The notes under the pieces: model-generated
Seen by the model: the letters and a program-made list of their open reading frames with translations, nothing else
Told to the model about the DNA's origin: nothing
Databases searched by the model: none
Shown here: in pieces, positions 4,026 through 57,185 of the stretch
How positions within the stretch are numbered: the first letter of the stretch is position 1
Layout: every line of letters starts with the position of its first letter
Made by a program: the position numbers and the translations under genes
DNA from: Bacteroidota bacterium
Lineage (GTDB): Bacteria; Bacteroidota; Bacteroidia; Palsa-948
Assembly (NCBI GenBank): GCA_016195025.1
Contig: JACQAL010000002.1
Location: 6,477-70,476, forward strand
DNA length: 64,000 nt
Reading direction: 5' to 3'

Positions 4026-4031
4026 TTTATT

Positions 4032-4068
4032 CCCCCTTAATGAAGGGGGCAATCCCGCTTTGCGGGAT
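4032..4068 (+). terminator. Two tandem GC-rich hairpins downstream of pdhB
   Basis: 'CCCCCTTaatgAAGGGGG' (4032-4049) and 'ATCCCGCtttGCGGGAT' (4052-4068), 7 nt after the stop. No strong T-tract follows, which is common in Bacteroidota. Confidence 0.45.
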
Positions 4069-4223
4069 GGGGGATGTCTTCTCATATCTTGTTAGCAACT
4101 TTCATCTTCCCTTCGGAAGAGAAAAATTTACATTCGCGTAAAATATTTCAGCACTCGTTCGTTACGTGCTCGTTTCTACAACCCGAAATTTGAACCATTA
4201 ACCCTAAACTTTCCAACTCTTCC

Positions 4224-5291
4224 ATGAAAAAACATTTCCTTTCTTTTTGCCTGCTGCTTACTGCCAACTGCCAACTTGTATTTTCCCAGATGGCCGGCAA
4301 TTCCACCTACAACCAGGCGGCAGAAAATTACAAATCATCCCTTTCTCTTCGCGGTAGCAGATCTAATTCCGAAAGTATAACAGGGTATGAAGCACCTAAA
4401 ATGTCAAATTACGATTATCAGCAGCAAACGCAAACCTATTACACTTCTTCCGTTGCAAATGCATGGGTGATTAGCGATACTGTTTTTGAATTGAGCGTGA
4501 ATGCGCTGATGAATGCGCACGCCAACTCGTATGTGGTTTCTCTCGGAGTTTCGCAGGCAGCGGGCACCATTGATTCCTGTCAGCAAATCATCAACGAGCG
4601 AATCAATAATTTCATTGCGCAACTTATGAAGTCAGGAATAAAGAAGGAAGATATATTTATTGATTTTGTTTCGCAGGTTCCCGTTTTCGAAGTTGCCATT
4701 GAAAAAAAGATTTTCAGCAAGCGCTATAACGAACTGCCCAGCGGGTTTGAACTCAAGAAAAATATTCACATCGCTTACAGGAAAAATGAAACGCTTGATG
4801 AAATTGTAACGCTTGCCGCCAAGAGCGAGATTTACGACATCATCAAAGTGGATTACATCATCAATACTATTTCTGCCGTGTACGACACGCTTCGCAATGC
4901 ATCCATAAAATTGCTGAATGAAAAAGCGGAGGACTATAAAAAACTCGGAATCAAATTTAATCCTAAGTTCCAGGTGATGGCGGAAGATGTGCAGGCGGTT
5001 TATCCGATTGAGCGCTATAAAAGTTATACTGCTTACAACAATTCATCTTTGCAGGCGCTGAAGAAAAGCGGAGTTTCTTCCACCAGCATTACTTACCAGC
5101 CCAAGCAAGCCACGCTTTACTACGATAAACTTCCCTACAACAATTATGATATAGTAATAAATCCGGTTGTGATTGAACCTGCCGCGCAGTTCACCTATAG
5201 TTTGAAAGTGCGTTATACTTACAAAGATGATTATGTTCCGAAAGAAAAAGTAACACCAATAACAACGACAGTAACTCCTCCTAAAAAATAA
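4224..5291 (+). CDS. Secreted protein of unknown function, possibly SIMPL/DUF541-like
   Basis: Signal peptide 'MKKHFLSFCLLLTANCQLVFSQ'. 'VVSLGVSQAAGTIDSCQQIINERINNFIAQLMKSGIKKEDIFIDFVSQVPVFE' loosely follows the SIMPL pattern. No catalytic motifs were recognised. Confidence 0.35.
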   Translation: MKKHFLSFCLLLTANCQLVFSQMAGNSTYNQAAENYKSSLSLRGSRSNSESITGYEAPKMSNYDYQQQTQTYYTSSVANAWVISDTVFELSVNALMNAHANSYVVSLGVSQAAGTIDSCQQIINERINNFIAQLMKSGIKKEDIFIDFVSQVPVFEVAIEKKIFSKRYNELPSGFELKKNIHIAYRKNETLDEIVTLAAKSEIYDIIKVDYIINTISAVYDTLRNASIKLLNEKAEDYKKLGIKFNPKFQVMAEDVQAVYPIERYKSYTAYNNSSLQALKKSGVSSTSITYQPKQATLYYDKLPYNNYDIVINPVVIEPAAQFTYSLKVRYTYKDDYVPKEKVTPITTTVTPPKK

Positions 5292-18288: not shown

Positions 18289-20820
18289 TTATTTCACAAC
18301 CGCTTTGATAATTTTATTTTGCCACGGTTTCCAATCTTTCGATTCAACATAGTTAATGATGATTCGCTTGTAAGCAGATTGTAAATAAAAAAATGTGAGC
18401 ACATCGCTTGCCGGTCCGCTCAAGCGGGAATTCGCGCTGAGCATTGCGTCAGTAATATATTCGATGGCAACATCATCGAGGTAATTTAATTTTTTCAGCG
18501 AGGTCATTGCGTTTGCGCGCGTGCGAAATTCATAGGAGGAACTGCAGAAACTCACGAGTTGGTCAACATATTTCGGATTGGTGAGCGAAGCAATCTCCAG
18601 CCATTTTATTTTTACGTTGCGACCGGGAAATCCTTCCACATCTTTTGTCTGCTCCAGATAAAAACCAATCTTATCAGGATTTGCAAACGCGAGATAATCG
18701 AGCACCTGCGTGATAATATCATAGGAAGGGTCTTTCAAAAGTTTTTCCACTTCGGGCAGCATATCTTCTTCGCGGAGTTCGCGGATGTTATCAATCACCG
18801 CTTTTCGCACATGCACATCGGCATCACTCAGCGCATTTTTAATCAGCGTCATTGATTGCTTGTGGTTGTCGTGCGAAAGTTGTTTTATGATTTCAGATTT
18901 CAGCGAATAAAAATCAGCTTTGTTATAAGCGGCAATCAGAAAATCGCGCTTGCGCTCTATGTCAATATCGTTCATTGCAACAAGCGCATCGTAGCGGTCA
19001 AGTACGCTGGCAGATTTCATTGCCTGCGCTTTCAGCATGTCAAAAGATTTATTGAAAGAAACATTTTTCAAAACTTCGTTATCGGGGTCGAACAAAGCAA
19101 AATCAATTTTCTTTCCTGCGGGAATTGGGAGGCGGATAATTTCTGTTTGCTGTTCAATCCGGATTTGTTTTTTGTCGAGTGTTCCATCGGTGTAATGAAC
19201 TTCAAACCAGATTGGCATTTTCCAAAGTCCAGATGGGGTTGCAGAATTATTTTCTTTTTCCTGAACAAACGGGTCGGATGAAACAGCATTTGATTTATTT
19301 CCTCCCGCTTGCGGAAGACCAGAGATTTCTGTTTGCTCCTGCACCTGCTGAACTAAAAATTCAGAATAGTGCAAAGCATTTTTATCTCCTGAATTTTCTG
19401 TGATGTCACGAAACACGACTTGAAAATTCGGTTCGCCTCCGCGGTAAATCCATTCATCCCAAAACCAATCGAGTTGCATGCCCGTGACTTCTTCACAGGC
19501 AACAAGTAAATCTTCCGAATCAACATTTGAATAAGAATGAGTTTCGAGATAATGCTTGATACATTTATTATAAACTTCTCTTCCGCCTAAAATATATTTC
19601 AGCATGTTCAGCACAAATGCGCCTTTCGGATAATGGCGAACGCTTCCGGCTTCGCTGTGCGCGATTGGAAAATAATTTTTCTTCGATTCCTCGAGAGAAT
19701 TTATTTGCGCGCCTCTGCGCGTCCAGTTAAAATTATTTTCTCCGAAAGTTTCTTTTTCAAAAAGCCAGTCATAATAAGTTGCAAAACTTTCCTGCAGCCA
19801 GTGATGTGCATCGCTTCTCGCTGTAATAAAATCTCCGAACCACTGATGCGCAAGTTCATGCGCGTTCACTCCGTAATAAGGGCGGTCAAGAAAAGCACGT
19901 TCATCGCAAAAAAGAAAATCTCCGAACACGGTTGCAGTTGTATTTTCCATAGCGCCATACATGAATTCCTGCACGGGAATCTGCGAATAACTTTCCCATG
20001 GATAATTCATGCCAATTTCTTTTTCGTAGAAGTCAACCATTTTTTCGCTCATCGTGTAACAGGTCTCTACACGATTTTTCCATTCAGGATAATAATATAA
20101 ATGCATTGGAATTCCCGAAGCGGATTTTGTTTCTTTAATATCATATTTTCCGATTCCAATCATAATAAGATATGGCGCGAACGGATGACTCATGCGGTAA
20201 TGCCACGTAAAAGTTCCGTTCGGATTATTTTTTTTGTCGAGCATTTTTCCATTTGATAAAACTTTATACGCAGTATCAAACGTGATAAAAGTTTCCGTAG
20301 TGATTTTATCGTTCATCTCATCGTACATCGGAATCCAGTTACGGTTGTCAACGCCTTGCCCCTGCGACCAGATTTGTTTTCTCGCAATTCCGGTTTTGTC
20401 ATTCCACCCGATGAAATAAAGCCCTTTGCGCGGAGTGCATTCATACGTAATCGTCATCGAATCTTTTTTCTCCCAAGAAAGAGAAGGGCAGTAAATAATA
20501 ATATTTAAACTATCACTTCGGAATTTTGCGGGCTTGCCGTTTAGAATAATTTCTTTTATATCCATATTGATTCCATCAAGAACAATTGAATCAACTTTTT
20601 GGCGGAGAGGAATAAATGTATGTGTAACTTTTCCTTTTACCAAATTTTTTTGCGGTTCGAAAGAAACTTCCAGTTTCAAATGCTGAAAATCTACGTTGTG
20701 TTCACGCGGAGCGAGGAGCGGGTCAATTATATAGGAACGGGTTTTGACTTGCGCATTGGAATTAAAAATTAAAAATGAAAAATTAAAAATGAAAAGACAT
20801 GCATGCAGGAGTTTTTTCAT
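18289..20820 (-). CDS. M1-family zinc aminopeptidase (aminopeptidase N-like) with a C-terminal HEAT/ARM-like region
   Basis: 843 aa with a signal peptide. The exopeptidase motif 'GAMENTT' and the gluzincin 'VNAHELAHQWFGD...E' (HExxH-x18-E) are both present. Confidence 0.85.
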   Translation of the reverse strand: MKKLLHACLFIFNFSFLIFNSNAQVKTRSYIIDPLLAPREHNVDFQHLKLEVSFEPQKNLVKGKVTHTFIPLRQKVDSIVLDGINMDIKEIILNGKPAKFRSDSLNIIIYCPSLSWEKKDSMTITYECTPRKGLYFIGWNDKTGIARKQIWSQGQGVDNRNWIPMYDEMNDKITTETFITFDTAYKVLSNGKMLDKKNNPNGTFTWHYRMSHPFAPYLIMIGIGKYDIKETKSASGIPMHLYYYPEWKNRVETCYTMSEKMVDFYEKEIGMNYPWESYSQIPVQEFMYGAMENTTATVFGDFLFCDERAFLDRPYYGVNAHELAHQWFGDFITARSDAHHWLQESFATYYDWLFEKETFGENNFNWTRRGAQINSLEESKKNYFPIAHSEAGSVRHYPKGAFVLNMLKYILGGREVYNKCIKHYLETHSYSNVDSEDLLVACEEVTGMQLDWFWDEWIYRGGEPNFQVVFRDITENSGDKNALHYSEFLVQQVQEQTEISGLPQAGGNKSNAVSSDPFVQEKENNSATPSGLWKMPIWFEVHYTDGTLDKKQIRIEQQTEIIRLPIPAGKKIDFALFDPDNEVLKNVSFNKSFDMLKAQAMKSASVLDRYDALVAMNDIDIERKRDFLIAAYNKADFYSLKSEIIKQLSHDNHKQSMTLIKNALSDADVHVRKAVIDNIRELREEDMLPEVEKLLKDPSYDIITQVLDYLAFANPDKIGFYLEQTKDVEGFPGRNVKIKWLEIASLTNPKYVDQLVSFCSSSYEFRTRANAMTSLKKLNYLDDVAIEYITDAMLSANSRLSGPASDVLTFFYLQSAYKRIIINYVESKDWKPWQNKIIKAVVK

Positions 20821-22931: not shown

Positions 22932-24092
22932 TCAACTGTTATAAACAACTTTGATTTTCTCTCTCAAATTATATTGCGAAGCCATCACTTCTCCGTATGC
23001 GCCTGTTGTTCGGATGGCAATTAAATCTCCCCGCTTAGTTTGAGGAAGGATTACGGCTTTGCCAAAACAATCCGAACTTTCGCAGATGGGACCGACAACA
23101 TCATAGCGGATGGTTGATGGTTGATGGTTGATGCTTGATGGAGAAGAAATATTTTCAATCTTGTGAAAGGATTGATAAAGTGCCGGGCGAATCAATTCCG
23201 TCATTCCTGCATCGAGGATTACAAAATTTGTATTCACACCTTTTTTTACATAGAGCACTTTTGAAATCAAACTTCCGCATTGCGCGACAATTGCTCTGCC
23301 GATTTCAAAATGCAAAGTTTGTTTCGGGCGTAGTTCAAGGAATTGTTTGAACAATCCAAAGTAAGAAGTAAAATCAGGAATGGAATTTTTATCCGGCTGG
23401 TGATAATCAACGCCAAGTCCGCCACCAACATTTATATGTTCCAAAGAAATTTTATGGCTTACAAACCAACTCTGAATTTCATTCGCGCGGAGGCAAAGCG
23501 ATTTGAATGCATTCAAATCTGTAATCTGCGAGCCAATATGAAAATGTATTCCGCAAATTTTTATGTTCTTCAATTGCTGCGTGCGTTTCACCACTTCTTC
23601 CAGTTCCCAGAGATTTATTCCGAATTTATTTTCTTCCAAACCTGTTGTAATGTACTTGTGCGTGTTCGCATTCACATTCGGATTAATGCGGAAAGCAATC
23701 GGAGCAATCTTATTTTTTTTCTTTGCTAATTCATTTATCACTTCAATCTCCTGTAAACTTTCGCAATTGAAACATGAAATATTTTTTTCAAGCGCAACAT
23801 TTATTTCTTCATCGTTTTTTCCAACTCCGGCAAAAAATAGTTGCGCAAACTTATATTCGCTTGCTTTTTTTACTTCATTACCGCTCACACAATCTGCTCC
23901 TAAACCGGATTTCTGAATCATAGAAAGTATTTCATCATTTGCATTTGCCTTCAGCGCATAGTGAACGTGATAGCCGTATTTCTCCGATTCTTTTTTCAAT
24001 GCCTCAATCGTTCGAGTCAGCAAATCCAAATCATAATAATAGAATGGAGTGGAGATTGAAGAGAACTTTTGTATTGTATTTTTTGAAAACAT
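22932..24092 (-). CDS. lysA: Diaminopimelate decarboxylase
   Basis: 386 aa. It carries the PLP-dependent Orn/DAP/Arg decarboxylase motif 'YALKANANDEILSMIQKSGLGADCVSGNEV' and lies downstream of lysC on the same strand. Confidence 0.85.
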   Translation of the reverse strand: MFSKNTIQKFSSISTPFYYYDLDLLTRTIEALKKESEKYGYHVHYALKANANDEILSMIQKSGLGADCVSGNEVKKASEYKFAQLFFAGVGKNDEEINVALEKNISCFNCESLQEIEVINELAKKKNKIAPIAFRINPNVNANTHKYITTGLEENKFGINLWELEEVVKRTQQLKNIKICGIHFHIGSQITDLNAFKSLCLRANEIQSWFVSHKISLEHINVGGGLGVDYHQPDKNSIPDFTSYFGLFKQFLELRPKQTLHFEIGRAIVAQCGSLISKVLYVKKGVNTNFVILDAGMTELIRPALYQSFHKIENISSPSSINHQPSTIRYDVVGPICESSDCFGKAVILPQTKRGDLIAIRTTGAYGEVMASQYNLREKIKVVYNS

Positions 24093-30532: not shown

Positions 30533-32935
30533 TTAATCCTTAATCATTTTTTTCGTCTCTATAACTTTTCCGTTTACAATAAGGGAATAAGAATAAACTC
30601 CTGCTGAGAGATTAGTGGCGGTAATATTCAACTGCCCCATTCCTTTTTCTTCCACTTTGTAAATCTTTAACTGAGTGCCAAACTCATCGTAGAAAACAAT
30701 TTGCGCGTTGGCATTATCGGGCACAAAGTATTTAATGGTTGTGCCATCGCCAAACGGATTAGGAGAATTTTGAAAAAGTACAGCAGTATTTGCGAGTTCA
30801 AGTTCATGAATGGAAGGAATATTTCCCTGCTCGGTATTTGTATTGCCGTTTGAATTATTTCCGCTGCCGTTTGTGCGCTGTCCGCCTGTGAGTGTGGAAA
30901 TTTGTGATTTCAATGCAGCAACAGTAGTTGTTAATGTATCAATCATTTTTTGCTGCTCTTGCATTGCTTTTACCATAGGAACAATAAATTTTGCATAACC
31001 CAAACTGTAATGGTCTTTTGAATTTTGTGGTCTGTAAACTCCATCAAAATCATATCCAAGTTTATTAGCAACGCTATCAACTTCTTGAGCAATAAATCCA
31101 GTACAAACCTTTTTTTCTGCTTTATCAAGTCCATCATTCATTTGCTGAATAAGGCTATCGCTTCTGCCAATAAATTTTTCTAAAGCATGGGCTTGAAAAT
31201 TATAAGTAATAGGTCGTAGTTTCATAATGAAAGCTAATCCGGGAACATTTTCTTTAATATTTGTTTTGAATCTACCATCAGAAAGAATTGACCAACCTGT
31301 TGTTGGATACCCGCCTATTGTCCCGCCTGTCATTGTAGAATTTCCTATAACTATTTTATCGCTTGCAGTCGATGAAGCAAGATATCCAAATGCACCTGCA
31401 TTTGTACCAGTCGCTCCCGCATCCGCGCCATAGCCCACGCAGGTATTATAAGTACCGGTAGTAATGCTTGCTCCCGTATTATATCCAATTGCAGTATTGC
31501 CGTCACCGGTGCTGTTGCTGCTTGCATTGCGTCCCACGCAGGTATTGTAACTCCCCGTGTTGGTGTAGCCGGCAGAAAAACCAATCATTGTGTTTGAGCC
31601 GCTGGTTGCATTGGAATAGCCCGCCTGATAACCCAAGTTTGTATTTCTTGAGCCGCTTGTATTGAGGTATCCCGCCCCGCTTCCTATAGAAGTTGCCCAG
31701 GACGCTGTGTTGTTATAACCGGACTGGTAACCCATCATAACAATATCGGTGGCGGTGGTTGATTTATATCCTGCCTGTGAGCCAAAAAAACAGTTATCAG
31801 AAAAAGAATTAGCAACCGTGCCTCCTCCTCCGCCTGCTTTATAACCGGTAATTGCATTATCAGTTCCGGTCTGGTTCCAGTAACCGGCATTATATCCAGC
31901 AATGGTGTTGTTTGTACCCGATGAATTACTTGCTCCTGCTAAACTTCCCACCATAGTATTGCTGGTTGCAGATGCCGCGCAACTAAATCCTGCCTCATAA
32001 CCGAGCAAAGTATTGTCATTTGCACCTGAAGCAAGATTTTGACCTGCATAATATCCGAAACAGGAATTATTGCTTCCGTTAGAATTGTTATATCCTGCAT
32101 TATTTCCTACAAAAACATTACCTGTGCCCGTTGTATTTAAGTCACCGGCATAATATCCAATAAAGGTATTTCCATTCACTGTATTATTTGATCCTGCAAG
32201 ATACCCGACAAAAACATTATTGCTCGCAGTTTGAGTGGTGCAAGTAGGACAATTACCTGCCGAATATCCTACATATACATTGGATGTGCCGGAGTAATTA
32301 TTAATCCCCGCATCTCCTCCTAAAAATGTATTGCCTGTAGCGCCTGAAGAGTTTTTGCCTGCGTCAACTCCCGCATAAATATTAGTATGAGTTCCATTAA
32401 TCCAAAGAACTTTTTGTGTTCCTAAAAAATACGCGTTTGACGTGCCTGTGGTTGTGCCGCCTGCATTTATATCTTGATCGACATCCAATCTATAAGTACC
32501 TGGAGAGTAATTAGTGCCAATGCCAAGATTACCGGTGCTATTTTTAAGAACCAATAAATCTGTATTGTCAGCGGCATTACTTACACGGAGTGAAAGAGAG
32601 CTTGCTCCGATTTTAATATAGGAGTGTTGATAGGTTGTGTTATAGTAACCAATCTCCAATTTTGCGCTTATATTATCATCTATATGAAGCCCTCCGTGAA
32701 GCGTTAATTTTCCATAAGTGGATGAGGAAGTGGTACCGCCAATTACAATTTTGCTGTTAGTAGCATCTTCATAAATTGGAGTGGCAGTGTTTCCTGCTGT
32801 ACTCCCCGTAGATGTAAATTTCGTTATGTAATTATTTGTACCGCTTCCAGTAATATTTTGTGCAAACATGCTGCCTGCGCTAAAGCACACCGCCACTCCC
32901 AGCAGCAATGCCTTTGTAAAAGTAGTTGTTTTCAT
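30533..32935 (-). CDS. Tail-fibre-like secreted protein: Gly/Asn/Thr-rich hemagglutinin-like repeats, a Peptidase_S74 (intramolecular chaperone) domain, and a T9SS type-A CTD
   Basis: 800 aa with a signal peptide. It has long runs of the repeat 'GxxAGxxNTxGxxNTxxGYxAG'. 'SDGRFKTNIKENVPGLAFIMKLRPITYNF...GFIAQEV...YAKFIVPMVKAMQEQQKMIDTL' matches the SDxRxKxNI chaperone-of-endosialidase domain. The C-terminus 'NSPNPFGDGTTIKYFV...SAGVYSYSLIVNGKVIETKKMIKD' is a Por-CTD. Confidence 0.7.
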   Translation of the reverse strand: MKTTTFTKALLLGVAVCFSAGSMFAQNITGSGTNNYITKFTSTGSTAGNTATPIYEDATNSKIVIGGTTSSSTYGKLTLHGGLHIDDNISAKLEIGYYNTTYQHSYIKIGASSLSLRVSNAADNTDLLVLKNSTGNLGIGTNYSPGTYRLDVDQDINAGGTTTGTSNAYFLGTQKVLWINGTHTNIYAGVDAGKNSSGATGNTFLGGDAGINNYSGTSNVYVGYSAGNCPTCTTQTASNNVFVGYLAGSNNTVNGNTFIGYYAGDLNTTGTGNVFVGNNAGYNNSNGSNNSCFGYYAGQNLASGANDNTLLGYEAGFSCAASATSNTMVGSLAGASNSSGTNNTIAGYNAGYWNQTGTDNAITGYKAGGGGGTVANSFSDNCFFGSQAGYKSTTATDIVMMGYQSGYNNTASWATSIGSGAGYLNTSGSRNTNLGYQAGYSNATSGSNTMIGFSAGYTNTGSYNTCVGRNASSNSTGDGNTAIGYNTGASITTGTYNTCVGYGADAGATGTNAGAFGYLASSTASDKIVIGNSTMTGGTIGGYPTTGWSILSDGRFKTNIKENVPGLAFIMKLRPITYNFQAHALEKFIGRSDSLIQQMNDGLDKAEKKVCTGFIAQEVDSVANKLGYDFDGVYRPQNSKDHYSLGYAKFIVPMVKAMQEQQKMIDTLTTTVAALKSQISTLTGGQRTNGSGNNSNGNTNTEQGNIPSIHELELANTAVLFQNSPNPFGDGTTIKYFVPDNANAQIVFYDEFGTQLKIYKVEEKGMGQLNITATNLSAGVYSYSLIVNGKVIETKKMIKD

Positions 32936-33021
32936 TATTATTTTTGTTTTAGAAATTTATTTTGCAGTTTTAAAAATCATTATTCAATAATCAATAATCA
33001 TTACACATTGGTCATTCCCCC

Positions 33022-33927
33022 TCACGACACCACCGCCCAGGCAGGCATGGAAAAAGCCCCCAGTTCGCCACGCGAGTTTTTCACGCGCGCAATGTACCAG
33101 GCGCATTTGCCAAGAGAGGTATTGTCTAAAACGCTTCTGAACAAGCCGCGGCTCGCATCGCCCGAATACTGGTAATCTGCCTGCGCGGGAATGGTTTGCG
33201 GGTTTAGTGTGAGCGCTATGTACACCTGAATTTCTTTCACTCCTTTTTCCTTGCCGCGTTTTTTATGCTCCACGCTGGTTACCAAAAGCACATGCAGCAA
33301 ATGTTTTATTTCGCGTATGGCAATGCTCACTTCTTTTCTGCCGGGCGCGGCAGTGCGTGTGAGGGTGGTATCCTGCAAAAGCGTTCCTTTCTTAATGCGG
33401 AAGGTTTCGCAGTCGCTCACCGTGCCGTTGAGGGCAATTTTATCGAGCAGGTGATGCCCCGTGTTTTTATCGTGGTCATACCTGAGCGTGTTCTTAATCA
33501 GAATAAGCAGTTGGTCTTTAATGTCGGTGTTCCGGTGCCGCTTGTCGGCATACTGCGCGTAAAGCGTATCGCTCTGGCTGCGGAAGGTATGCCAGTCAGT
33601 GCTTTCCTGCCCCGTCCAGCCCCAGTTCTGGAAGCGGTTGTTTTGCAGTTGATAGTTATCGGTGTTCACCATATAAGCGGCAAACTCCGAGGGTTTGTTG
33701 GGGATGCGTGTGGTGCAGGCAATGAATGGCTCACGGACGGCAATGAGTGATTTTTGGCAGGCAATGAGCGGCTCACGGACGGCAATGAACGATTTTCGGC
33801 AGGCAATGAGCGGCTCACCGCCTGCCATAAATGCCTTGCGGTTAAGAGAACCGCGTTTTTTGAATGATTTTGCTACCTTGCGGAGTGCCTCAGCCAATGC
33901 GCGAAGCAGAGCCGAAAGGAGGCGCAA
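33022..33927 (-). CDS. Hypothetical protein in a GC-rich island. The likely true start is the internal Met at 33672 (MVNTDNYQ..., 216 aa). Upstream, the ORF translation is made of tandem nucleotide repeats.
   Basis: The minus-strand ORF is 301 aa. The first roughly 85 aa (Ala/Leu/Arg-rich, 'EPLIACRKSFIAVREPLIACQKSLIAVREPFIAC') are the translation of the 42 bp repeats, so a start at 33672 is more plausible. No family was recognised. GC content is visibly about 50% against about 40% for the flanks. Confidence 0.35.
   Translation of the reverse strand: MRLLSALLRALAEALRKVAKSFKKRGSLNRKAFMAGGEPLIACRKSFIAVREPLIACQKSLIAVREPFIACTTRIPNKPSEFAAYMVNTDNYQLQNNRFQNWGWTGQESTDWHTFRSQSDTLYAQYADKRHRNTDIKDQLLILIKNTLRYDHDKNTGHHLLDKIALNGTVSDCETFRIKKGTLLQDTTLTRTAAPGRKEVSIAIREIKHLLHVLLVTSVEHKKRGKEKGVKEIQVYIALTLNPQTIPAQADYQYSGDASRGLFRSVLDNTSLGKCAWYIARVKNSRGELGAFSMPAWAVVS
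33715..33828. repeat. Tandem direct repeats of about 42 bp, roughly 2.7 copies
   Basis: 'GCAGGCAATGAATGGCTCACGGACGGCAATGAGTGATTTTTG', then 'GCAGGCAATGAGCGGCTCACGGACGGCAATGAACGATTTTCG', then a partial 'GCAGGCAATGAGCGGCTCACCGCCTGCCAT'. Each unit contains a 21 nt sub-repeat 'GGCAATGAnnGnnTnnnGgnn'. Confidence 0.8.
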
Positions 33928-33986
33928 ACGCGGGTGAGTGTAATAATAAGGAAGAAATAAACTTTGCTTATGAGAGCAGAAGAAGG

Positions 33987-34049
33987 GCTGGTCGCTGGTC
34001 GCTGGTCGCTGGTCGCTGGTCGCTGGTCGCTGGTCGCTGGTCGCTGGTC
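33987..34049. repeat. Perfect heptanucleotide microsatellite (GCTGGTC) x 9
   Basis: 63 nt of uninterrupted 'gctggtc' units, about 60 nt upstream of the 33927 ORF start, in the gap between two T9SS protease genes. Confidence 0.9.
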
Positions 34050-34210
34050 AAACGGTTTCATAGAGCGAACATAACTGATTGCCGTCAATTTATTGCAAGG
34101 AGAGAGGGAAAAGATACGATTTTTTGCAAACAAGTTTTCAACAATAAAAAAAACCCTGAATCTGCCTTAAACAGACAGTCCCGGGGTTTTCTGTGAGAGA
34201 ATTTTACCTT

Positions 34211-37135
34211 TTATTTCATCACACTGAATCTTTTCGTCAGCACTGCTTCGCCTGCTTTTAACTGGAAAAAATAATTTCCCGCGCTGAGTTTGGAAGCATC
34301 GAGGGTGAGCGTGTTTCTTCCCTGCTGAATGTTTTCATAGGTCATTACCACTTCGCCCAGTGAATTCATAATGCGGATGGCGGCATGCTCGTAGCCAATC
34401 ACGTTGTAGGCAATGTTCACGTTGGTGGTTGCGGGCGAGGGATAAGCATACGCCCAGAAGTTATCGGTTTCGCCATTTTCAAACACACCGGTGCTGCAGG
34501 AGTTATCCCATTTATCCTGCGCAGCGCAGGCGGTTGCCTGAATGTCGGCAAGGTTGTCTCCGCCAATGAGCGCGAAGGCAACGGTTACGCTGTCGCCCGC
34601 ATTTACGGTGAAGGGCCCGCTGCTCACGCAGTTCATCACATCTCCTCCGGTGGCAGAAAATCCATCGCTGGCGCGCAGAACGGAAAGGGCTTTGTATTTA
34701 TCGGCAGTGGTGAAATTGGTGGTGGGGTCAATGTCTCCATTTCCTCCCGAAACGTTGTCCACCACATGGCAGTTGGGAGGTGCGGAATTAGTTAAGACCT
34801 TCGTAGCCGCATATAAATTATTTCCCACCCAGTAAACGTATCCCATTTTGTTGGGCACATCCCAACTTGCTTTGTCCTGCCCCGAATTGGCATTGGGCAC
34901 ATCCCAGTCAGACATGATTCCGGCATACAAGCCGCTGAGCGTGCTTGCGCCCGTATTGGTGATTACATATTTCACAATCACAAATTTCCTGTAAGGCGCG
35001 GTTTGCCATGCATACGCATTGTGGTGAACGCTCACGGGAATGGGACCGCTGGTGGTGGCAGGCGCATCGTTGAAACTTCCATCCACATCAAAATCGGAAA
35101 CCGTTGCGGGAAGAACTTGTTTCACGCGAACGGTAGAACCAAAATCGGTGTTGCCCGTGCTTGCATCGCGGAACATATCAGAAACCTTTGTACTTGAAGC
35201 GCCAATCATCAAACTGGATTCATAGAGAAGCGCCTGGGGCGATGGGTTTTCGTATTCAACGCCAAGCCCGTTCACCTGCCCGTCATTGTTATAGCCAATT
35301 CTTCCTTTGCTGGTAATGGTGGTGTGCAAATCATTAATGGTAATATTAATGTAATCGGGGTTCACCAGAATATCAAAATACGTATCGCCCGTGAACGTTC
35401 CATCCGTAATATGAATTTTGAAACGCACGGTTTGATTAATGGGAGCGCTGGCAGAAAGCACCGCTGTAAAAGGCGAAGCATTGTTGTTGGTTGTTGCCAG
35501 CGTGGCAAGCGCGCCAATGGTGAAACTTCCGTTTGTAATAGTAGGATTGGGTCCCGCAGAAACCGAATAGGTGCTCAGCGTTGCCGTTGCGCTGGAAGAA
35601 GAAGGGTCAAGATAATTGGTGAATATTCCGCTGATGTCAATGGTTTCACCCACATCAAAAATGTTATCGTTATTGTCAGTAACTGTAACCGGATTTACCA
35701 AAATGGATTTTGCCGCCTGCGTGAGCGCGTTGTTGATGTCAATTCTTCCCTTGCCAAGTTTTCCTAAAGGATATTGCGTGGCGCTTGGCATAGGGTCGCA
35801 GGTTTGTTTCATCTGCTCTCCAATCTGGAAAGCATTGGTATAATTTTTCACCGACTGAATCAATGCCGCACCGCCTGCCGAAACCGGGCAAGCCATGGAA
35901 GTTCCGCTGGCTGATTGGTATCCTGCACCGCTCGTGGTTGAATAAACATTATTTCCGGGAGCGCAGTAGTCCACATCCAGCCCGTAAGAAGAAAAACCCG
36001 CCATGTTATCTGTGCTGGTGGAAGCCGACACGCGGTATATATTATTATAGGAAGAAGGATAGGTTTGGTCTTCCACTCCGTTATTGCCGGCAGAAGCCAT
36101 CACCAGAATATTATTGTTGATGGCGGCATAGTCAATAATGTTTTGCCCGTAAGAGCCGCCACCGCTTCCGCCCCATGAGTTGCTGATCATCTGAACAATG
36201 TTTCCATGCTTGGCAGAAAAATCGGCAAGCCATTGAATTCCCTGGTAGGCAGCCACCAGTGCACCGCTTGCATCGGCAATTTTGCACATGATAAATTTCG
36301 TATTGAAGCCGGGGCTTGAAACTCCCGTGCTGTTATTTGTAACCGCACAGGCATCTCCGCTTGTCATCACTCCGTGATTGTTTCCCTGCCAGGTGGGGTC
36401 GTTGTCATTCATTCCCACATCCCAGCCGTTGTAATCGTCTATATAACCGTCTGCATCATTATCACTGCCATCAACCGGGTCAGCGGTGTTGTGGTAAACA
36501 TTTGCGGCAAGGTCGGGGTGAGTGAGTTCTGTGCCGGTGTCGGTGATTCCCACTATAAAACTTGCGCTTCCGTTGGTGGTGCACCAGGCGGTTCCTTTCA
36601 CATCAATGCTGCCGGTAACATTTCCTTGGATATGATATTGGCTTCCTAAAGATGGGTCATTCGGAGTGCATACGGCATGAAGTTTGGGAACATACCAGGG
36701 CTCCACGTATTCAAAATAGCCGAGCGAAAGCATTCCGTTAATTACTTTTTCAAGATTCAAACCTGAGGTGAACTTGAAAGAATAAATAAGAGAGAGGTCA
36801 ACTAATTTTTGTCCGAGCGCATTTCTTTCCTGCGCGGGCGCTTCCACGTGAGGATAAATTTTTGCCACTTTAGTTGCGCCCACCGAATTAAGATAATCCT
36901 GAAGCGGAAGAATATTATCAACTGAATTTATTTTGCAGTTCTGCCGGTACTGGGGTTTTACTTTGAAGATAACTGTGGTTGGCAGATAATCTCCTTCGTG
37001 AACATTTGCAGCCAGTTTGAAATGCATGGGCGCATGGTTGCCCGGAATAATTACTTCGCATTTGTTGCCTGCGAATGTAAGCGCTGTGCCAGAGAGAAAA
37101 AGCGCAGCAGTAAACAGAGATGTAAATTTTTTCAT
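34211..37135 (-). CDS. Subtilisin-like serine protease (S8 family) with a T9SS type-A C-terminal sorting domain
   Basis: 974 aa with a signal peptide. The catalytic triad context is present: D ('VGITDTGTELTHPDL'), H ('NNHGVMTSG') and S ('GTSMACPVSAGGAALI'). The C-terminus 'YPSPATTNVNIAYNV...LSAGNYFFQLKAGEAVLTKRFSVMK' is a Por-CTD. Confidence 0.9.
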   Translation of the reverse strand: MKKFTSLFTAALFLSGTALTFAGNKCEVIIPGNHAPMHFKLAANVHEGDYLPTTVIFKVKPQYRQNCKINSVDNILPLQDYLNSVGATKVAKIYPHVEAPAQERNALGQKLVDLSLIYSFKFTSGLNLEKVINGMLSLGYFEYVEPWYVPKLHAVCTPNDPSLGSQYHIQGNVTGSIDVKGTAWCTTNGSASFIVGITDTGTELTHPDLAANVYHNTADPVDGSDNDADGYIDDYNGWDVGMNDNDPTWQGNNHGVMTSGDACAVTNNSTGVSSPGFNTKFIMCKIADASGALVAAYQGIQWLADFSAKHGNIVQMISNSWGGSGGGSYGQNIIDYAAINNNILVMASAGNNGVEDQTYPSSYNNIYRVSASTSTDNMAGFSSYGLDVDYCAPGNNVYSTTSGAGYQSASGTSMACPVSAGGAALIQSVKNYTNAFQIGEQMKQTCDPMPSATQYPLGKLGKGRIDINNALTQAAKSILVNPVTVTDNNDNIFDVGETIDISGIFTNYLDPSSSSATATLSTYSVSAGPNPTITNGSFTIGALATLATTNNNASPFTAVLSASAPINQTVRFKIHITDGTFTGDTYFDILVNPDYINITINDLHTTITSKGRIGYNNDGQVNGLGVEYENPSPQALLYESSLMIGASSTKVSDMFRDASTGNTDFGSTVRVKQVLPATVSDFDVDGSFNDAPATTSGPIPVSVHHNAYAWQTAPYRKFVIVKYVITNTGASTLSGLYAGIMSDWDVPNANSGQDKASWDVPNKMGYVYWVGNNLYAATKVLTNSAPPNCHVVDNVSGGNGDIDPTTNFTTADKYKALSVLRASDGFSATGGDVMNCVSSGPFTVNAGDSVTVAFALIGGDNLADIQATACAAQDKWDNSCSTGVFENGETDNFWAYAYPSPATTNVNIAYNVIGYEHAAIRIMNSLGEVVMTYENIQQGRNTLTLDASKLSAGNYFFQLKAGEAVLTKRFSVMK

Positions 37136-37281: not shown

Positions 37282-37731
37282 TTATTTGTACTCAGGAAAA
37301 TCTTTTAGAAATAAATGCTTTCCCTGTTCATAGTTCATTTCGCAGCAATAATGTTTCAAGCCGTTTGTTACCGCCAAAAATTTTGTTCTGAGTTTATTCG
37401 ATATATTGTAAACGGCAACCTGATTAAAAGTTTCCTGAGAAATTTTTACATCGGGTTTTTTGCATTCCACAATCATCCACACATTTCCTTTCCGGTTGTG
37501 AATTTTTATGTCGCTTCGCTTTTGAAGTTTGTTGTACTTCAATCCTGTTTCAACGGCAATAAGCGAAGCAGGATATTTTTTTTCTTCAATTAAATACTGA
37601 ATAAAATTCTGGCGCACCCATTCTTCGGGTGTGAGAGCGACAAACTTTTTGCGAATCGCATCAAAGATTTGATTTCCTTTTTCACCTTGTCGAATTCGAA
37701 AAGAATATTCGGGAAGATTTAATTTTAACAT
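37282..37731 (-). CDS. Stand-alone protein resembling the type I restriction enzyme HsdR N-terminal domain
   Basis: 149 aa. 'EEWVRQNFIQYLIEEKKYPASLIAVETGLKYNKLQKRSDIKIHNRKGNVWMIVECKKP' fits the HSDR_N fold pattern (E...R.DI...P...IE.K), which is common as a solo roughly 150 aa protein in Bacteroidota. Confidence 0.6.
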   Translation of the reverse strand: MLKLNLPEYSFRIRQGEKGNQIFDAIRKKFVALTPEEWVRQNFIQYLIEEKKYPASLIAVETGLKYNKLQKRSDIKIHNRKGNVWMIVECKKPDVKISQETFNQVAVYNISNKLRTKFLAVTNGLKHYCCEMNYEQGKHLFLKDFPEYK

Positions 37732-38927: not shown

Positions 38928-39194
38928 AAATTTTTTATTCGAAAAAATTATACGCTTTTTCCAGATACTTTGTTTTCAGCGCAGCAATGCGGTTGCTGCC
39001 GAAAATACTTGACGGACTCGCAAAAATTCCCTGCAGAAGCGGAAAAACCCCGCACGGAATTGCTGAATAAACAGACGGGATGCCTGAATGAACGCGCGGG
39101 ACTTCAAAAAGAAGTTCAAGTTATTGATGAATCCCGCACCTGCATTTAAAATGAACACGCGGGAGGGCAGAAAAAATTTGCGTTATGTATGCGG

Positions 39195-39340
39195 AAACAT
39201 TCCCTTATGCAGCAGGAAGTTTTAGTAGTTGCACAGCAAGTTTTAGTTGAGCGCGCCAAACATTGCCTTATGCAGCAGGAAGTTTTAGCAGTTATACAGC
39301 AAGTTTTATTTCAACCTGCCGAACATTGCTTGCTGCGCGC
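39195..39340. repeat. Tandem direct repeat of about 63 nt (about 2.5 copies) with an internal periodicity of about 21 nt, inside a 530 bp intergenic region
   Basis: Unit 1 is 'AAACATTCCCTTATGCAGCAGGAAGTTTTAGTAGTTGCACAGCAAGTTTTAGTTGAGCGCGCC'. Unit 2 is 'AAACATTGCCTTATGCAGCAGGAAGTTTTAGCAGTTATACAGCAAGTTTTATTTCAACCTGCCG'. Unit 3 is partial. The sub-motif 'GCAGCA(G)GAAGTTTTAG' recurs four times. Confidence 0.8.
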
Positions 39341-39456: not shown

Positions 39457-39858
39457 ATGAATTATTTCCTCGTCAAATCCGAACCCGAAACGTATTCATG
39501 GGAACAATTTGCCAAAGACGGCAAAACCATGTGGGAAGGCGTGCGCAACTTTGCCGCGAGAAAAAATTTACGCTCTATGAAAAAAGATGATTTGGTTTTG
39601 TTCTATCACAGCGGAGAAGATAAATGCGTGAAAGGAATTGCAAAAGTTACCAGAGAATTTTACCAAGACCCCACCACAAAAGAAGATTGGTCGGTGGTTG
39701 ACCTTGCTTCTGAAAAACCGCTGAAGAAACCCGTTACGCTGGCGCAAATAAAAGCAGAAAAAAAATTGCAGAACATTTATCTGGTGAGACAAGGAAGATT
39801 ATCCGTTATGCCGCTTGGCAAAGAAGAGTTTGAACTTATCGTTCGCATGGGAAGTTGA
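39457..39858 (+). CDS. EVE-domain (PUA-like) protein
   Basis: 133 aa. 'MNYFLVKSEPETYSWEQFAKDGKTMWEGVRNFAARKNLRSMKKDDLVLFYHSGEDKCVKGIAKVTREFYQDP' is the canonical EVE/DUF55 signature. Confidence 0.85.
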   Translation: MNYFLVKSEPETYSWEQFAKDGKTMWEGVRNFAARKNLRSMKKDDLVLFYHSGEDKCVKGIAKVTREFYQDPTTKEDWSVVDLASEKPLKKPVTLAQIKAEKKLQNIYLVRQGRLSVMPLGKEEFELIVRMGS

Positions 39859-53860: not shown

Positions 53861-56503
53861 TTATCTCACCATGCTCACATTCCCGATATATTTATGCTGT
53901 TTCTTGTTGGCATCGGTGAGTTCCACTTTCCATACATACACATCTTCCTGCACCAATTCTCCGTTGCGCTTTACTTTTCCATCCCACGAGCATTTCTTAT
54001 CGCTTTGCGGGTCGCCAAAGGTGTGGCAACTCCAGATTAAATTTCCCCAGCGGTCAAAAATCCACATGTTGAAATCAATGATGTAGGAACCCAGCCCGGT
54101 GAAATATTCATTGAAGCCGTCTTCATTCGGAGTAAAAGCATTGGGAGCGTAAAAGGTGAAGGGCGCTTCCACGTAAATGCAGTGCGTGATGGTATCCATG
54201 CATACGCCTCCCGAATCGGCAACGTAAAGCGTGATGCAATACACGCCCGTATCGGTATACACATGGAAAGGATTTTCCACGCTGCTCGTGGAAGGATTAT
54301 TCGGGTCGCCAAACGTCCAGTACCAGGTAGCCGTATTGTTGGAGGAGCCATTGAAACAATATACGGTTCCGTCAAGCAGGTTTACGGTATCGGGAGTGTC
54401 ATAGAAATTTGCAACGGGCGGACCTTTCTGCGGAACAACCACCGTCATTGATTGATTGCATCCGTTGCCATCCGTTACCAATACATTGTAGGTTCCACCG
54501 GAAATATTATTGAGTGTTTGAGTCATTTGCACAGGAGAAGTAAGCCACGTGTAAGTATAAGGCGAAGTTCCGCCCGAAGCGAAGGCGCTGGCAGAGCCGT
54601 TTGCCATTCCGCAGGAAGCAATGGCGGTGGAATTGGATAAAGTGAGTTGGGTGGGCTGCGTAATGTTTACGGTGGAAACTTTCGTGCAGCCGTTGGCATC
54701 GGTAATCATTACTGAGTAAGTTCCCACAGGCAGCCCCGTTGCCGCTTGCGTGGTTTGATTAGGCGAAGTAGCCCATAAATACGTATAAGGAAGTGTTCCT
54801 CCGCCTCCGTTCACCATGGCATTTCCATCGCTGTTGCCGAAGCACTTCACGTTGTTAAGCACGTTAGTAGCAGCAGTTAATGTGGGCGCCTGCGTGGTAA
54901 CAGAAACTGTCTGCGTTTTGGTGCAGCCATTGGCATCGGTTACGGTTGCTACATAGTTGCCAATGCCAAGCCCTGTTGCTGTCTGGGCATTCTGCACGGG
55001 AGATGTGTTCCATGAATAAGTATAGGGAGAAGTTCCGCCCGAGCCGGTGGCTGTAGCAGTTCCTATGTTTGCCGTGCATTGCGTGGGGGTGGAAGTGGTG
55101 GTTGCCGCCAAAGCCGGTGGCTGCGTTACCGCAACGGTGTAAGTGGCTTTGCAGCCCGAAGCATCGCTCACCTGAACGGAATAAGTTCCTGCCGAAAGCC
55201 CGGTGGCAGTGGTAGATGTTTGTATTGGAGTTGTTGCCCATGCATATGTGTAGGGAGCGTTTCCTCCAGTAGCAGTTAATGTGGCGGAGCCGTTGCTGCC
55301 TCCGCTGCATTTGGTGGCGGTGGTTGTAAATGTTACATTGGGACCGGGAGAAGTTGTAATTGTAAAAGTTGCCGAAACCGGACCACATCCGCCTGTACCA
55401 GTAACAGAAACAGAATAATTTCCTGCTGTAAGGTTACTGATGGAAGTTGTCGTGGCTCCTGTACTCCATAAATACGTATAAGGTTGTGTTCCTCCCGATA
55501 CATTTGCAATAGCAGAACCATTTGGAGCGTTGCAGGTGGAATTGGTGGGAGCAACAGTTAGGGAAAGAACATTACAACTGGATAGCTGATAATATACTCC
55601 CATATTTCCCCAGAGCCAGCAGTCGCTTCCTCCTCCATCTTGGGCGAATAGGGAAGTAGTTTGTCCACAAGTTAATGTTACAGGCGCTTCATCGTAGCAA
55701 TAAAAATCATTGGGGAAAGCAATGACGTTACCATTCAAGGTGGTATTATGCGTGGCGGCAACATTGTCCTGGTGGTCGGAAGAAGTTGCCCATGCGCGCG
55801 CAAGCGTAGGCGTTCCCGAAACAGTCAAGCCGGTCATGGTGTATGGTTTATACATGCCTGTTTGCCCGTCAGTCATTGCGCCATCCCAGATATCAAGAGA
55901 GCCCATGTAAGTAGCACCGGGATCAGTATAAATAATCATAAGTGTCATTCCGTCTATCTCCCAGTTGGGATTGGAGAAGCCGGAAACATTGAAGTTGTAA
56001 GTTCCGTTTCCGCTAACAGATGTAGTTACATCCCAGCGGTAAACGGCAGTGCCGGTTTCTCCCCAGCATTTGGGACCGTCTGTTCCAATGGGACCGCCCG
56101 ATGCGTAACTGGTGGTGGCGGCAGCGGGATTTGTAATGGTAACTGTTCCATTTGGAGCAGTGGCTGATTGATAGCCCGTCAGCGCCCAGACAAATGCCTT
56201 ATCCAAAACATAACCAGCAGGTAAACCAGCAATCGTCCATTTGGCAGGAAACCCGGAGCCATAGTAGCCGGAAGTAGTGTAGGTATTATATCTTGTTTCA
56301 GTCAACGTGGTGTCATACACATAATTTAATCCGCAGGCGGATTTATTGTAAATGGGTCCGCCCATAACACCGTTTCCGTTCATGGGAGAAATGGTAACAT
56401 TGTGTTTTCCGCAGGCGCCCGGCAGCCCTTGTGAAAATGTTTCGGGAAGCGATATTCCCATAGTGGCAGCGATGAAAAATAGTGAATGTAAAAAATACTT
56501 CAT
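53861..56503 (-). CDS. SprB-repeat surface protein with a T9SS type-B C-terminal domain; a tandem paralog of 51512-53848
   Basis: 880 aa. It has the same SprB repeat architecture, and the C-terminus 'FYAPNAFTPNEDGFNEYF...FDRWGNLIWSCHTFGDPQSD' is nearly identical in motif to its neighbour. Confidence 0.8.
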   Translation of the reverse strand: MKYFLHSLFFIAATMGISLPETFSQGLPGACGKHNVTISPMNGNGVMGGPIYNKSACGLNYVYDTTLTETRYNTYTTSGYYGSGFPAKWTIAGLPAGYVLDKAFVWALTGYQSATAPNGTVTITNPAAATTSYASGGPIGTDGPKCWGETGTAVYRWDVTTSVSGNGTYNFNVSGFSNPNWEIDGMTLMIIYTDPGATYMGSLDIWDGAMTDGQTGMYKPYTMTGLTVSGTPTLARAWATSSDHQDNVAATHNTTLNGNVIAFPNDFYCYDEAPVTLTCGQTTSLFAQDGGGSDCWLWGNMGVYYQLSSCNVLSLTVAPTNSTCNAPNGSAIANVSGGTQPYTYLWSTGATTTSISNLTAGNYSVSVTGTGGCGPVSATFTITTSPGPNVTFTTTATKCSGGSNGSATLTATGGNAPYTYAWATTPIQTSTTATGLSAGTYSVQVSDASGCKATYTVAVTQPPALAATTTSTPTQCTANIGTATATGSGGTSPYTYSWNTSPVQNAQTATGLGIGNYVATVTDANGCTKTQTVSVTTQAPTLTAATNVLNNVKCFGNSDGNAMVNGGGGTLPYTYLWATSPNQTTQAATGLPVGTYSVMITDANGCTKVSTVNITQPTQLTLSNSTAIASCGMANGSASAFASGGTSPYTYTWLTSPVQMTQTLNNISGGTYNVLVTDGNGCNQSMTVVVPQKGPPVANFYDTPDTVNLLDGTVYCFNGSSNNTATWYWTFGDPNNPSTSSVENPFHVYTDTGVYCITLYVADSGGVCMDTITHCIYVEAPFTFYAPNAFTPNEDGFNEYFTGLGSYIIDFNMWIFDRWGNLIWSCHTFGDPQSDKKCSWDGKVKRNGELVQEDVYVWKVELTDANKKQHKYIGNVSMVR

Positions 56504-57024: not shown

Positions 57025-57129
57025 GAGCACTCCTCCGGAGCGCAGGAGCACTCCTCCGCTCGTGAGGAACACTCCTCCGCTCGTGAGGAACACTCCTCCG
57101 CTCGTGAGGAACACTCCTCCGCTCGTGAG
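57025..57129. repeat. Tandem 21 bp repeat x 5 in the 680 bp gap upstream of the SprB-repeat genes
   Basis: Copy 1 is 'GAGCACTCCTCCGGAGCGCAG' (diverged). Copy 2 is 'GAGCACTCCTCCGCTCGTGAG'. Copies 3 to 5 are 'GAACACTCCTCCGCTCGTGAG', then 'GACACGCC'. Confidence 0.85.
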
Positions 57130-57185
57130 GACACGCCAAATCGTTTGAGAATTCTTCTCAAACGGAGTAAGAGGTATTTCAGGAG

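Follow-up and report, generated by a model that had tools for sequence, protein, structure and literature searches.

The GC-rich, repeat-laden segment that we have analysed is, to judge from its relatives in other genomes, a native copy of a conserved Bacteroidota gene family. Comparison of the homologous loci shows that a tandem array upstream of the gene is a hallmark of this large family: the array retains a 21-bp period although its sequence turns over, and whole 21-bp units are gained and lost. The window referred to below is the whole 64-kb stretch of DNA that was analysed. We put it at about an even chance that array and gene together form a two-part cassette, native in uncultured Bacteroidota, in which the array is a putative phased cis-regulatory element.

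The gene is found within a minus-strand open reading frame of 301 aa (33022-33927), which has no significant match in Pfam, NCBIfam, PHROG or PADLOC. A word-indexed search gave 25 homologs from Bacteroidota metagenome-assembled genomes (MAGs) and metagenomes, all of them labelled "hypothetical" and, with the exception of one partial sequence of 126 aa, 239-268 aa long. At E<=1e-3, an exhaustive profile search brought the family to 448 cluster representatives. Almost all of these are 220-260 aa long, no Pfam domain was matched, and the description of the gene as an orphan in the original prediction can thus be dropped. Our literature search returned no description of the family or of its arrays. 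Structure prediction and fold search point to an N-terminal three-helix bundle (pLDDT 90) and a C-terminal FN3 domain, with no HTH, winged-helix, Rep-like or known nucleic-acid-binding domain in the predicted fold. The family protein has no signal peptide and is basic, with a mean pI of 8.5 for the family and of 9.15 for the C-terminal domain.

The start of the window copy is abnormal, and annotators would probably mis-call it. The homologs start with M-x(3-6)-R-I-[PS], which aligns at window residues 69-75. Because the homologs align from about 33714-33723, the window array directly abuts the conserved N-terminus. A start at the methionine at 33672, as proposed earlier, is then too far downstream, and would cost 16-17 conserved N-terminal residues, the near-invariant R-I and F included. 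Every homolog has a stop codon in frame 10-40 nt before its ATG, and its array is followed by an A-rich leader. In the window this leader of 35-106 nt is missing and the last array unit runs into the coding sequence, which reads ...TTC ATT GCC TGC ACC ACA CGC ATC CCC, or I-A-C-T-T-R-I-P after the TTC, at the place where the homologs have M-A-x-x-(x)-R-I-P. The ATT that occupies the position of the homologs' ATG is a part of the last array unit. A relative that is 95% identical (P0001, HY063_15400) has a normal start, MANTRIPNK. From the sequence, the ATT could be either a lost or a rare start codon. The frame is open from it through the array to the first upstream ATG, and a start there would add about 36 repeat-encoded residues (MAGGEPLIACRKSF...). 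With the leader missing and ATT in place of ATG, the gene may therefore be translated in extended form from 33828, use a rare ATT start or be disabled; a truncated product from the internal ATG at 33672 is the other option. Table 1 gives the coordinates of these and the other features of the locus.

Table 1. Features of the family gene locus and its neighbours, in window coordinates.
Feature	Position	Strand	Basis or remark
Second downstream T9SS cargo, 285 aa	29570..30427	-	L004 synteny
Tail-fibre-like T9SS cargo: Peptidase_S74 intramolecular-chaperone domain + Por_Secre_tail	30533..32935	-	L004 synteny
Conserved coding core of family gene	33022..33714	-	Residues T72-S301 of the 301-aa ORF + stop codon
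Internal ATG (Met86)	33670..33672	-	Start proposed by the original prediction
Tandem array, 42 bp x 2.5 = five 21-bp units	33715..33818	.	TRF, unit search, equivalent arrays at homologous loci
ATT at homologs' ATG position	33721..33723	-	Sequence, alignment, start-codon survey of homologs
First in-frame upstream ATG	33826..33828	-	Frame open through array
Perfect (GCTGGTC)x9 microsatellite, 63 bp	33987..34049	.	TRF
Lone inverted copy of array unit, 16 of 19-21 positions	34066..34086	.	Marginally above chance
Imperfect hairpin, then T-run	34150..34190	-	Inverted repeat + sequence
Upstream neighbour: Peptidase_S8 subtilase + Por_Secre_tail (T9SS sorting)	34211..37135	-	Domain matches

Both tandem repeats that had been read from the letters of the window proved to be real. 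TRF reports the array with a period of 42, 91% matches and a 21-nt sub-period, and the heptamer tract with 9.0 copies at 100%. Each of the five 21-bp units of the array has the same invariant core of 8-9 bp, TCATTGCC on the gene strand, which can be extended to (C/T)TCATTGCC. The spacers of 12-13 nt between the cores come in two versions that alternate. When all lags from 5 to 89 are scanned, tandem periodicity in the 64-kb window is seen only at 7, 14, 21, 42 and 63, and neither the array unit nor the heptamer unit has a second site in the window (about 0 matches are expected from shuffles). The lone inverted copy of the array unit gave 15/18 in the null test, with about 3% of shuffles as good, and such a copy is not general among the homologous loci. 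A plus-strand ORF through the array (33695-33937) and an ORF that spans the heptamers are without homologs or other support and are therefore treated as by-products of the repeats. The hairpin upstream of the heptamers was not flagged by a consensus terminator scan; judged by its sequence it probably serves to terminate the S8 gene upstream, which would set the upstream limit of the cassette.

The original prediction suggested a foreign origin of the segment on the basis of its GC content. Windowed GC confirms that the deviation is present: the peak of the window is the 1-kb bin 33001-34000 at 0.523, against 0.379 for the bin 32001-33000, and the conserved core of the ORF (GC 0.525, GC3 0.649) ranks first among the 39 window ORFs, whose means are 0.424 for GC (sd 0.040) and 0.418 for GC3 (sd 0.070). 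The surroundings of about 40% GC that had been described hold on the low-coordinate side. On the high-coordinate side they do not, and the contrast there is small because the adjoining S8 gene (34.2-37.1 kb) is itself at 0.47-0.50. In 9 of 10 other genomes the family gene also lies 6-14 points of GC above its own locus, and since the excess is family-wide it is no mark of recent import in the window. The family gene and the two downstream T9SS genes are syntenic with those of another homologous locus, L004 (MAG contig CAWHOW010000026), where the counterpart of the S74/T9SS protein has 43% identity and that of the 285-aa T9SS protein 55%. No tRNA genes are present in the 64-kb window and no mobility genes or integrase near the ORF. 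The composition thus deviates from the window mean, but signs of patchy presence and mobility are absent, and a foreign origin is not supported.

Foreign origin had been coupled to a more specific proposal, in which the segment would be an island gained by horizontal transfer, with iterons and a gene for a replication initiator or phage regulator. One can see how the locus invites this reading, as direct repeats in the 17-22-bp size range of iterons immediately precede the gene, no other window ORF is as GC-rich, and the single marginal inverted unit further upstream resembles a Rep operator. However, the protein expected by this reading is not there: the bundle and FN3 domain are not a Rep-type fold, and a viral fold search matched only the FN3 domains of tail proteins. 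A replicon finds no support either: tblastn against 72,556 plasmids and 50,697 phages came back empty, and no relatives were found in IMG/VR viral contigs. The homologs sit on chromosomal contigs of up to 545 kb and the family is multi-copy, with several copies per genome on contigs of 100-545 kb and two copies in each of two MAGs; one of the within-genome pairs is a 2.18-kb duplication that is 97.5% identical. Taken with the chromosomal synteny to L004, the lack of tRNA and integrase genes nearby, the family-wide GC excess and an inverted unit that is not a general feature, this reading is already contradicted and we consider it highly improbable. A foreign replicon or phage island was a false lead, and for the window it can be removed.

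The gene was also said to lie between two T9SS protease genes. This is right for the upstream neighbour, which encodes a Peptidase_S8 protein, and not for the downstream one, which is a T9SS cargo with an S74 chaperone domain. The S8 gene is outside the conserved cassette, and upstream neighbours differ between homologs. The downstream side is more regular. In the window the S74 gene follows the family gene on the same strand after 87 nt, and the next same-strand gene encodes a signal-peptide protein at most loci. This gene has a T9SS sorting domain in the window and at L002, L003, L004, L009 and L021; at L013 it ends at the contig end before a sorting domain could be scored, and at L033/L034 the sorting domain is found one gene further downstream. 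The exceptions include Hsp20, aldehyde dehydrogenase and transposase genes.

The main finding on the array comes from the other members of the family. That the repeats are tied to the gene and no accident was a point on which the original prediction held up, as every homologous locus examined has an equivalent array. Of the 36 homologous loci whose upstream sequence reaches 130 nt or more, all 36 have an array; some 26 of these loci are independent. TRF identifies them in 28 loci, with periods of 21, 42, 63, 84 or 126 bp, 2-16 units and a distance of 35-106 nt from the array end to the ATG. Three loci missed by TRF have their top autocorrelation lags at 21, 42 or 63, and five more loci (three distinct arrays) likewise have arrays. 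A period of 20 or 22 bp was seen at none of the 36. The sequences of the units are unrelated between loci, and the proteins at array-bearing loci can be as low as 30-45% identical. Two comparisons are informative about how the arrays are inherited. The homology between L003 and L013 begins exactly at the first array unit, and array and gene therefore travel as one cassette. The flanks of L020 are 94-95% identical to those of L022 and of L024, and in each of these two comparisons the difference amounts to exactly 105 bp, or 5 x 21.

The units themselves are not random in content. Short palindromes are enriched in them (combined p = 2e-4), and the hexamer AAATGA is found on the sense strand of 8/20 independent arrays and on the antisense strand of 1/20, with a null maximum of 5. 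At L003-type loci the 42-bp unit is built as an inverted repeat rather than from direct repeats of 21 bp. Elsewhere in 268 kb, about 10 further sites have an array whose period is a multiple of 21, for example 39054-39329 and 57044-57131 of the window. Since these stand before unrelated genes, 21-bp arrays are not exclusive to the family.

Intrinsic curvature was considered as a sequence-independent cause of the 21-bp phase and rejected. A wedge model (Bolshoy parameters), which gave the correct result for a phased A-tract control, placed only 9/20 arrays above the null mean of shuffled-unit arrays (combined p = 0.18).

These observations can be read in a way that requires no function at all. 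The array could be a selfish or neutral minisatellite that is inherited with the gene, with unequal crossing-over alone keeping the 21-bp period. Unit sequences that are unrelated between loci, a polymorphic copy number, similar arrays at unrelated positions and a predicted curvature no higher than that of shuffled-unit arrays are all in line with this. What makes it unlikely in our view is the retention of arrays at all 36 loci down to 30-45% protein identity, when a neutral array should often have collapsed to one unit, together with the constant position relative to the ATG, a period that is never 20 or 22, and the enrichment of palindromes and AAATGA.

We return to the array as a phased cis element. 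A strict 21-bp period, free sequence and palindrome-rich units are what we would expect of sites for a dimeric or oligomeric DNA binder, and by analogy the likeliest mechanism is a putative protein-binding platform with a two-helical-turn (LytTR-like) spacing. The first part of the cassette is the tandem array in strict 21-bp phase (21, 42, 63 or 84 bp), and the second, immediately downstream, the gene for the ~250-aa protein with a predicted three-helix bundle and FN3 domain; the gene of a secreted or T9SS-sorted protein usually comes next on the same strand. The array would offer binding sites two helical turns apart to a dimerising or oligomerising regulator, and its copy number would tune expression of the family gene and probably also of the cargo gene behind it.

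Some observations bear on the choice of regulator. In L003/L004, L009 and L013 a stand-alone LytTR protein is encoded immediately upstream, and L013 has two copies of such a gene. Against a simple LytTR model, L003 and L013 share one array and have unlike LytTR neighbours, the units at some loci are 42-bp inverted repeats, and the 64-kb window has no LytTR gene. A sigma-54 promoter was looked for and rejected, as TGGCAC-N5-TTGG is found in only 2/21 loci; L036 has a sigma-54 activator gene upstream. The idea of an invertible array switch was prompted by AATGA on the antisense strand of the window array and by the missing leader. It was also rejected: the closest paralog, L001, likewise has CAT/ATG on the antisense only, flanking inverted repeats are absent, and the lone inverted unit is of marginal strength and not seen generally. 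The alignment between the window array and that of L001 is weak.

A serious rival to a DNA platform is a role in the leader RNA, as there are signs that the arrays are transcribed. The gaps between array and ATG are A-rich, contain no promoter motifs and are in some cases only 35-50 nt long. At least 13 loci share a conserved (C)GTTCTTT motif, which precedes the array by 10-170 nt, and in L006, L012 and L014 a TAnnTTTG-like -7 box stands 5-6 nt before this motif. Together these sequence features suggest transcription through the array, and the (C)GTTCTTT context fits a leader RNA at least as well as it does an upstream activator site. The array would then be transcribed as a long 5' UTR in which short hairpins are repeated between A-rich linkers, and which possibly acts through protein binding (the encoded basic FN3 protein is one candidate), mRNA stability or control of translation. 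The strand specificity of AAATGA, the enrichment of palindromes able to form hairpins and the basic C-terminal domain agree with this. However, predicted folding has no strand asymmetry, with the sense strand more stable in just 11/22 arrays, a result on which an RNA hairpin array defined by such asymmetry was rejected. There is also no match to an Rfam family: in the window Rfam gave only a sub-threshold miRNA-hairpin artefact, and on the arrays of 16 loci it gave nothing. ATG is found on the sense strand of 12/20 arrays and on the antisense strand of 5/20, but their reading frame bears no consistent relation to that of the gene. Tandem mini-ORFs and a leader peptide were rejected for the same reason, with only 3/16 in frame with the gene and uORFs of 2 to 82 codons. 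Finally, no known RNA mechanism imposes a strict 21-nt period, and 21 bp corresponds to two turns of the DNA helix. On balance we find a leader-RNA role doubtful, but worth keeping in view.

A broader form of the cassette proposal can be stated, which we put forward as a tentative possibility. The array and the three-helix-bundle/FN3 protein could be a self-contained Bacteroidota module that has not been described before, in which the protein or a partner would recognise the array specific to its own locus, as DNA or as leader RNA. Concerted turnover and copy steps of 21 bp would make the array a heritable rheostat for the protein and for its secreted or T9SS cargo, and the same repeat grammar would be reused before other genes.

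The heptamer tract is a separate matter. Placed between the probable S8 terminator and the array, it is 159 nt from the ATG at 33828 and precedes the conserved N-terminus by 273-335 nt. It is present in no homologous locus, nor elsewhere in 268 kb of related loci, and it is therefore not part of the conserved design. It is a lineage-specific microsatellite with a hypermutable look, and changes in its length could further alter expression of the cassette. It could also be given the leading role, as a contingency switch, with the cassette and possibly also the cargo genes being turned on and off as (GCTGGTC)n slips. Nine perfect copies that are unique in the window and in the related loci would suit such a switch, and so would their place in the cassette's upstream region, directly behind GTTCGCT; at other loci the array begins directly behind GTTCTTT. 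We nevertheless regard the switch as quite improbable, since no homologous locus has such a tract, a promoter scan could define no promoter at the window locus, and all candidate start codons are over 150 nt away.

If the array is functional, it would be a rule-like cis element with strict 21-bp phase, free sequence and variable copy number, and a testable case of helical phasing being conserved rather than sequence. It would also give a handle on the regulation of surface and secreted proteins in environmental Bacteroidota, which are poorly understood, and a first functional hypothesis for an unannotated family with hundreds of cluster representatives.

Comparison with known systems helps to place the array. 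Plasmid iterons with their Rep proteins and centromere arrays such as F sopC (12 x 43 bp) and R1 parC have units of about 20 or about 43 bp, which often hold short inverted repeats and adjoin the gene for their cognate protein. Unit size and a phasing near two helical turns are common to these systems and to our arrays. However, the family protein has no Rep, ParB or RHH fold, and the loci are chromosomal, multi-copy and syntenic, without plasmid or phage relatives. Simple-sequence contingency loci include the hmw promoters of Haemophilus influenzae with their heptanucleotide repeats. The window likewise has a perfect heptamer tract upstream of a cluster of surface or secreted protein genes, but this tract is absent from all homologous loci.

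The closest geometry is that of the LytTR promoters (AgrA, ComE, SilA, PlnC type), whose sites are direct repeats of 9-10 bp with spacers of 11-12 bp, 21 bp from centre to centre (PMC2766830). The window array, with a core of 8-9 bp every 21 bp, has the same geometry, and three independent homologous loci have stand-alone LytTR genes beside them. The known sites are pairs, however, whereas here the arrays have 2.5-16 units; several of ours are palindromic or have 42-bp units, and they may lie downstream of the promoter.

The nearest described repeat in Bacteroidota is BrickBuilt of Porphyromonas gingivalis, a minisatellite/MITE with one shared 23-nt unit, a leader and tail, and terminal inverted repeats (PMC4596501). 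Its copy number varies from strain to strain and it has been proposed to influence the expression of neighbouring genes (PMC4596501). The likeness is that of an intergenic tandem direct-repeat array of variable copy number in Bacteroidota. Our arrays differ in having locus-specific units, a period of 21, no terminal inverted repeats and a bond to one gene family; at the window the unit is unique and there are no flanking terminal repeats. The likeness to iterons with Rep, to centromere arrays and to LytTR promoters is one of geometry only. The array falls among the phased direct-repeat cis elements, with a moderate chance that it represents a new kind of module.

At the homologous loci L003 and L004 (8616-10792), the cassette formed by the array and the family gene is contained in a 2.18-kb intragenomic duplication of 97.5% identity. 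The duplicated segment also holds a stand-alone gene for a LytTR DNA-binding regulator domain, and each of the duplicate copies precedes a different T9SS cargo gene. At another homologous locus, L012, the family gene (1492-2265) is found in two pieces of 129 aa and 106 aa, a split that marks it as frameshifted or a pseudogene; despite this, a degenerate 21-bp array is still detectable there. In 9 of the 10 genomes compared (10 homologous loci), the GC content of the family gene is 6-14 points above that of the locus around it. Candidate causes of this excess are the codon bias of high expression, gene conversion between paralogs, or mobility of the cassette.

A conserved motif, (C)GTTCTTT, is located 10-170 nt upstream of the arrays in at least 13 loci, which include L002, L003, L005, L006, L011, L012, L014, L019, L032, L034, L035 and L036, and it is often followed by GTAAAC. 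In a first test it was present in 7 of 16 loci, compared to a null 95th percentile of 5. The motif may represent the 5' end of the transcript, since in L006, L012 and L014 it comes 5-6 nt after a TAnnTTTG-like -7 box. Its only counterpart in the window is GTTCGCT (34056-34062, minus strand), just before the heptamer tract. Sigma-54-like promoters of the form TGGCAC-N5-TTGG are found ahead of the motif in L002 (-370 from the ATG) and L034 (-325), and in L036 a sigma-54 activator gene (3218-4315) is directly upstream of the cassette. As a general feature of the cassette the sigma-54 promoter was rejected, being found in only 2 of 21 loci.

When all lags from 5 to 89 were scanned over the 64 kb, tandem self-similarity was seen only at lags 7, 14, 21, 42 and 63, and multiples of 7 dominate the TRF periods over 268 kb (window and loci). 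The heptamer tract (GCTGGTC)x9 spans 63 bp, or 3 x 21, and the array starting at 33715 about 5 x 21. Between the two lies a unique spacer (33819-33986) of 168 bp, or 8 x 21, whose length may be a coincidence given that no 21-bp autocorrelation is found within it. Just upstream of the S8 gene, which encodes a subtilase with a T9SS sorting domain, a gene at 37282-37731 encodes a stand-alone 149-aa protein with a type I restriction enzyme R subunit N-terminal domain (HSDR_N_2, E = 1.5e-36).

Repeats and hairpin-like features in the window and in locus L003
Feature	Location	Strand	Remark
Heptamer repeat GATGGTT x 4.7	window 23109-23141		inside ORF 22932-24092
Near-palindrome, 14-bp arms	window 33792-33832		at distal end of the 33715 array
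Terminator-like hairpin	window 33837-33855	+	
Arrays, periods 21 bp and 63 bp	window 39054-39329		
21-bp x 4.2 array, unit AGGAACACTCCTCCGCTCGTG	window 57044-57131		near-perfect, 98% matches
21/42-bp array	L003 18111-18230		65 nt upstream of ORF 18295-18906

Two further sets of 21-bp arrays are found elsewhere in the window. The near-perfect one sits within a 680-nt intergenic gap, and downstream of it is a gene (53861-56503, minus strand) for a secreted repeat protein of 880 aa; the repeat grammar is that of the family arrays, but the adjoining gene is unrelated. The arrays with periods of 21 and 63 bp lie downstream of a 365-aa gene, and they precede, by 128 nt, a plus-strand gene at 39457-39858 that encodes 133 aa. 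The 8-mer AATGAACG occurs both in one of their units and in the array at 33715, a match no better than chance.

The L003 array in the table precedes an ORF for a different protein of 203 aa, which likewise has no signal peptide. It is helical at the N-terminus and FN3-like at the C-terminus, and no sequence relationship to the family protein was detectable. A weakly related 225-aa paralog is encoded elsewhere on the same contig (2117-2794). The array habit may reach beyond the family to a broader class of small proteins that combine a helical part with FN3.
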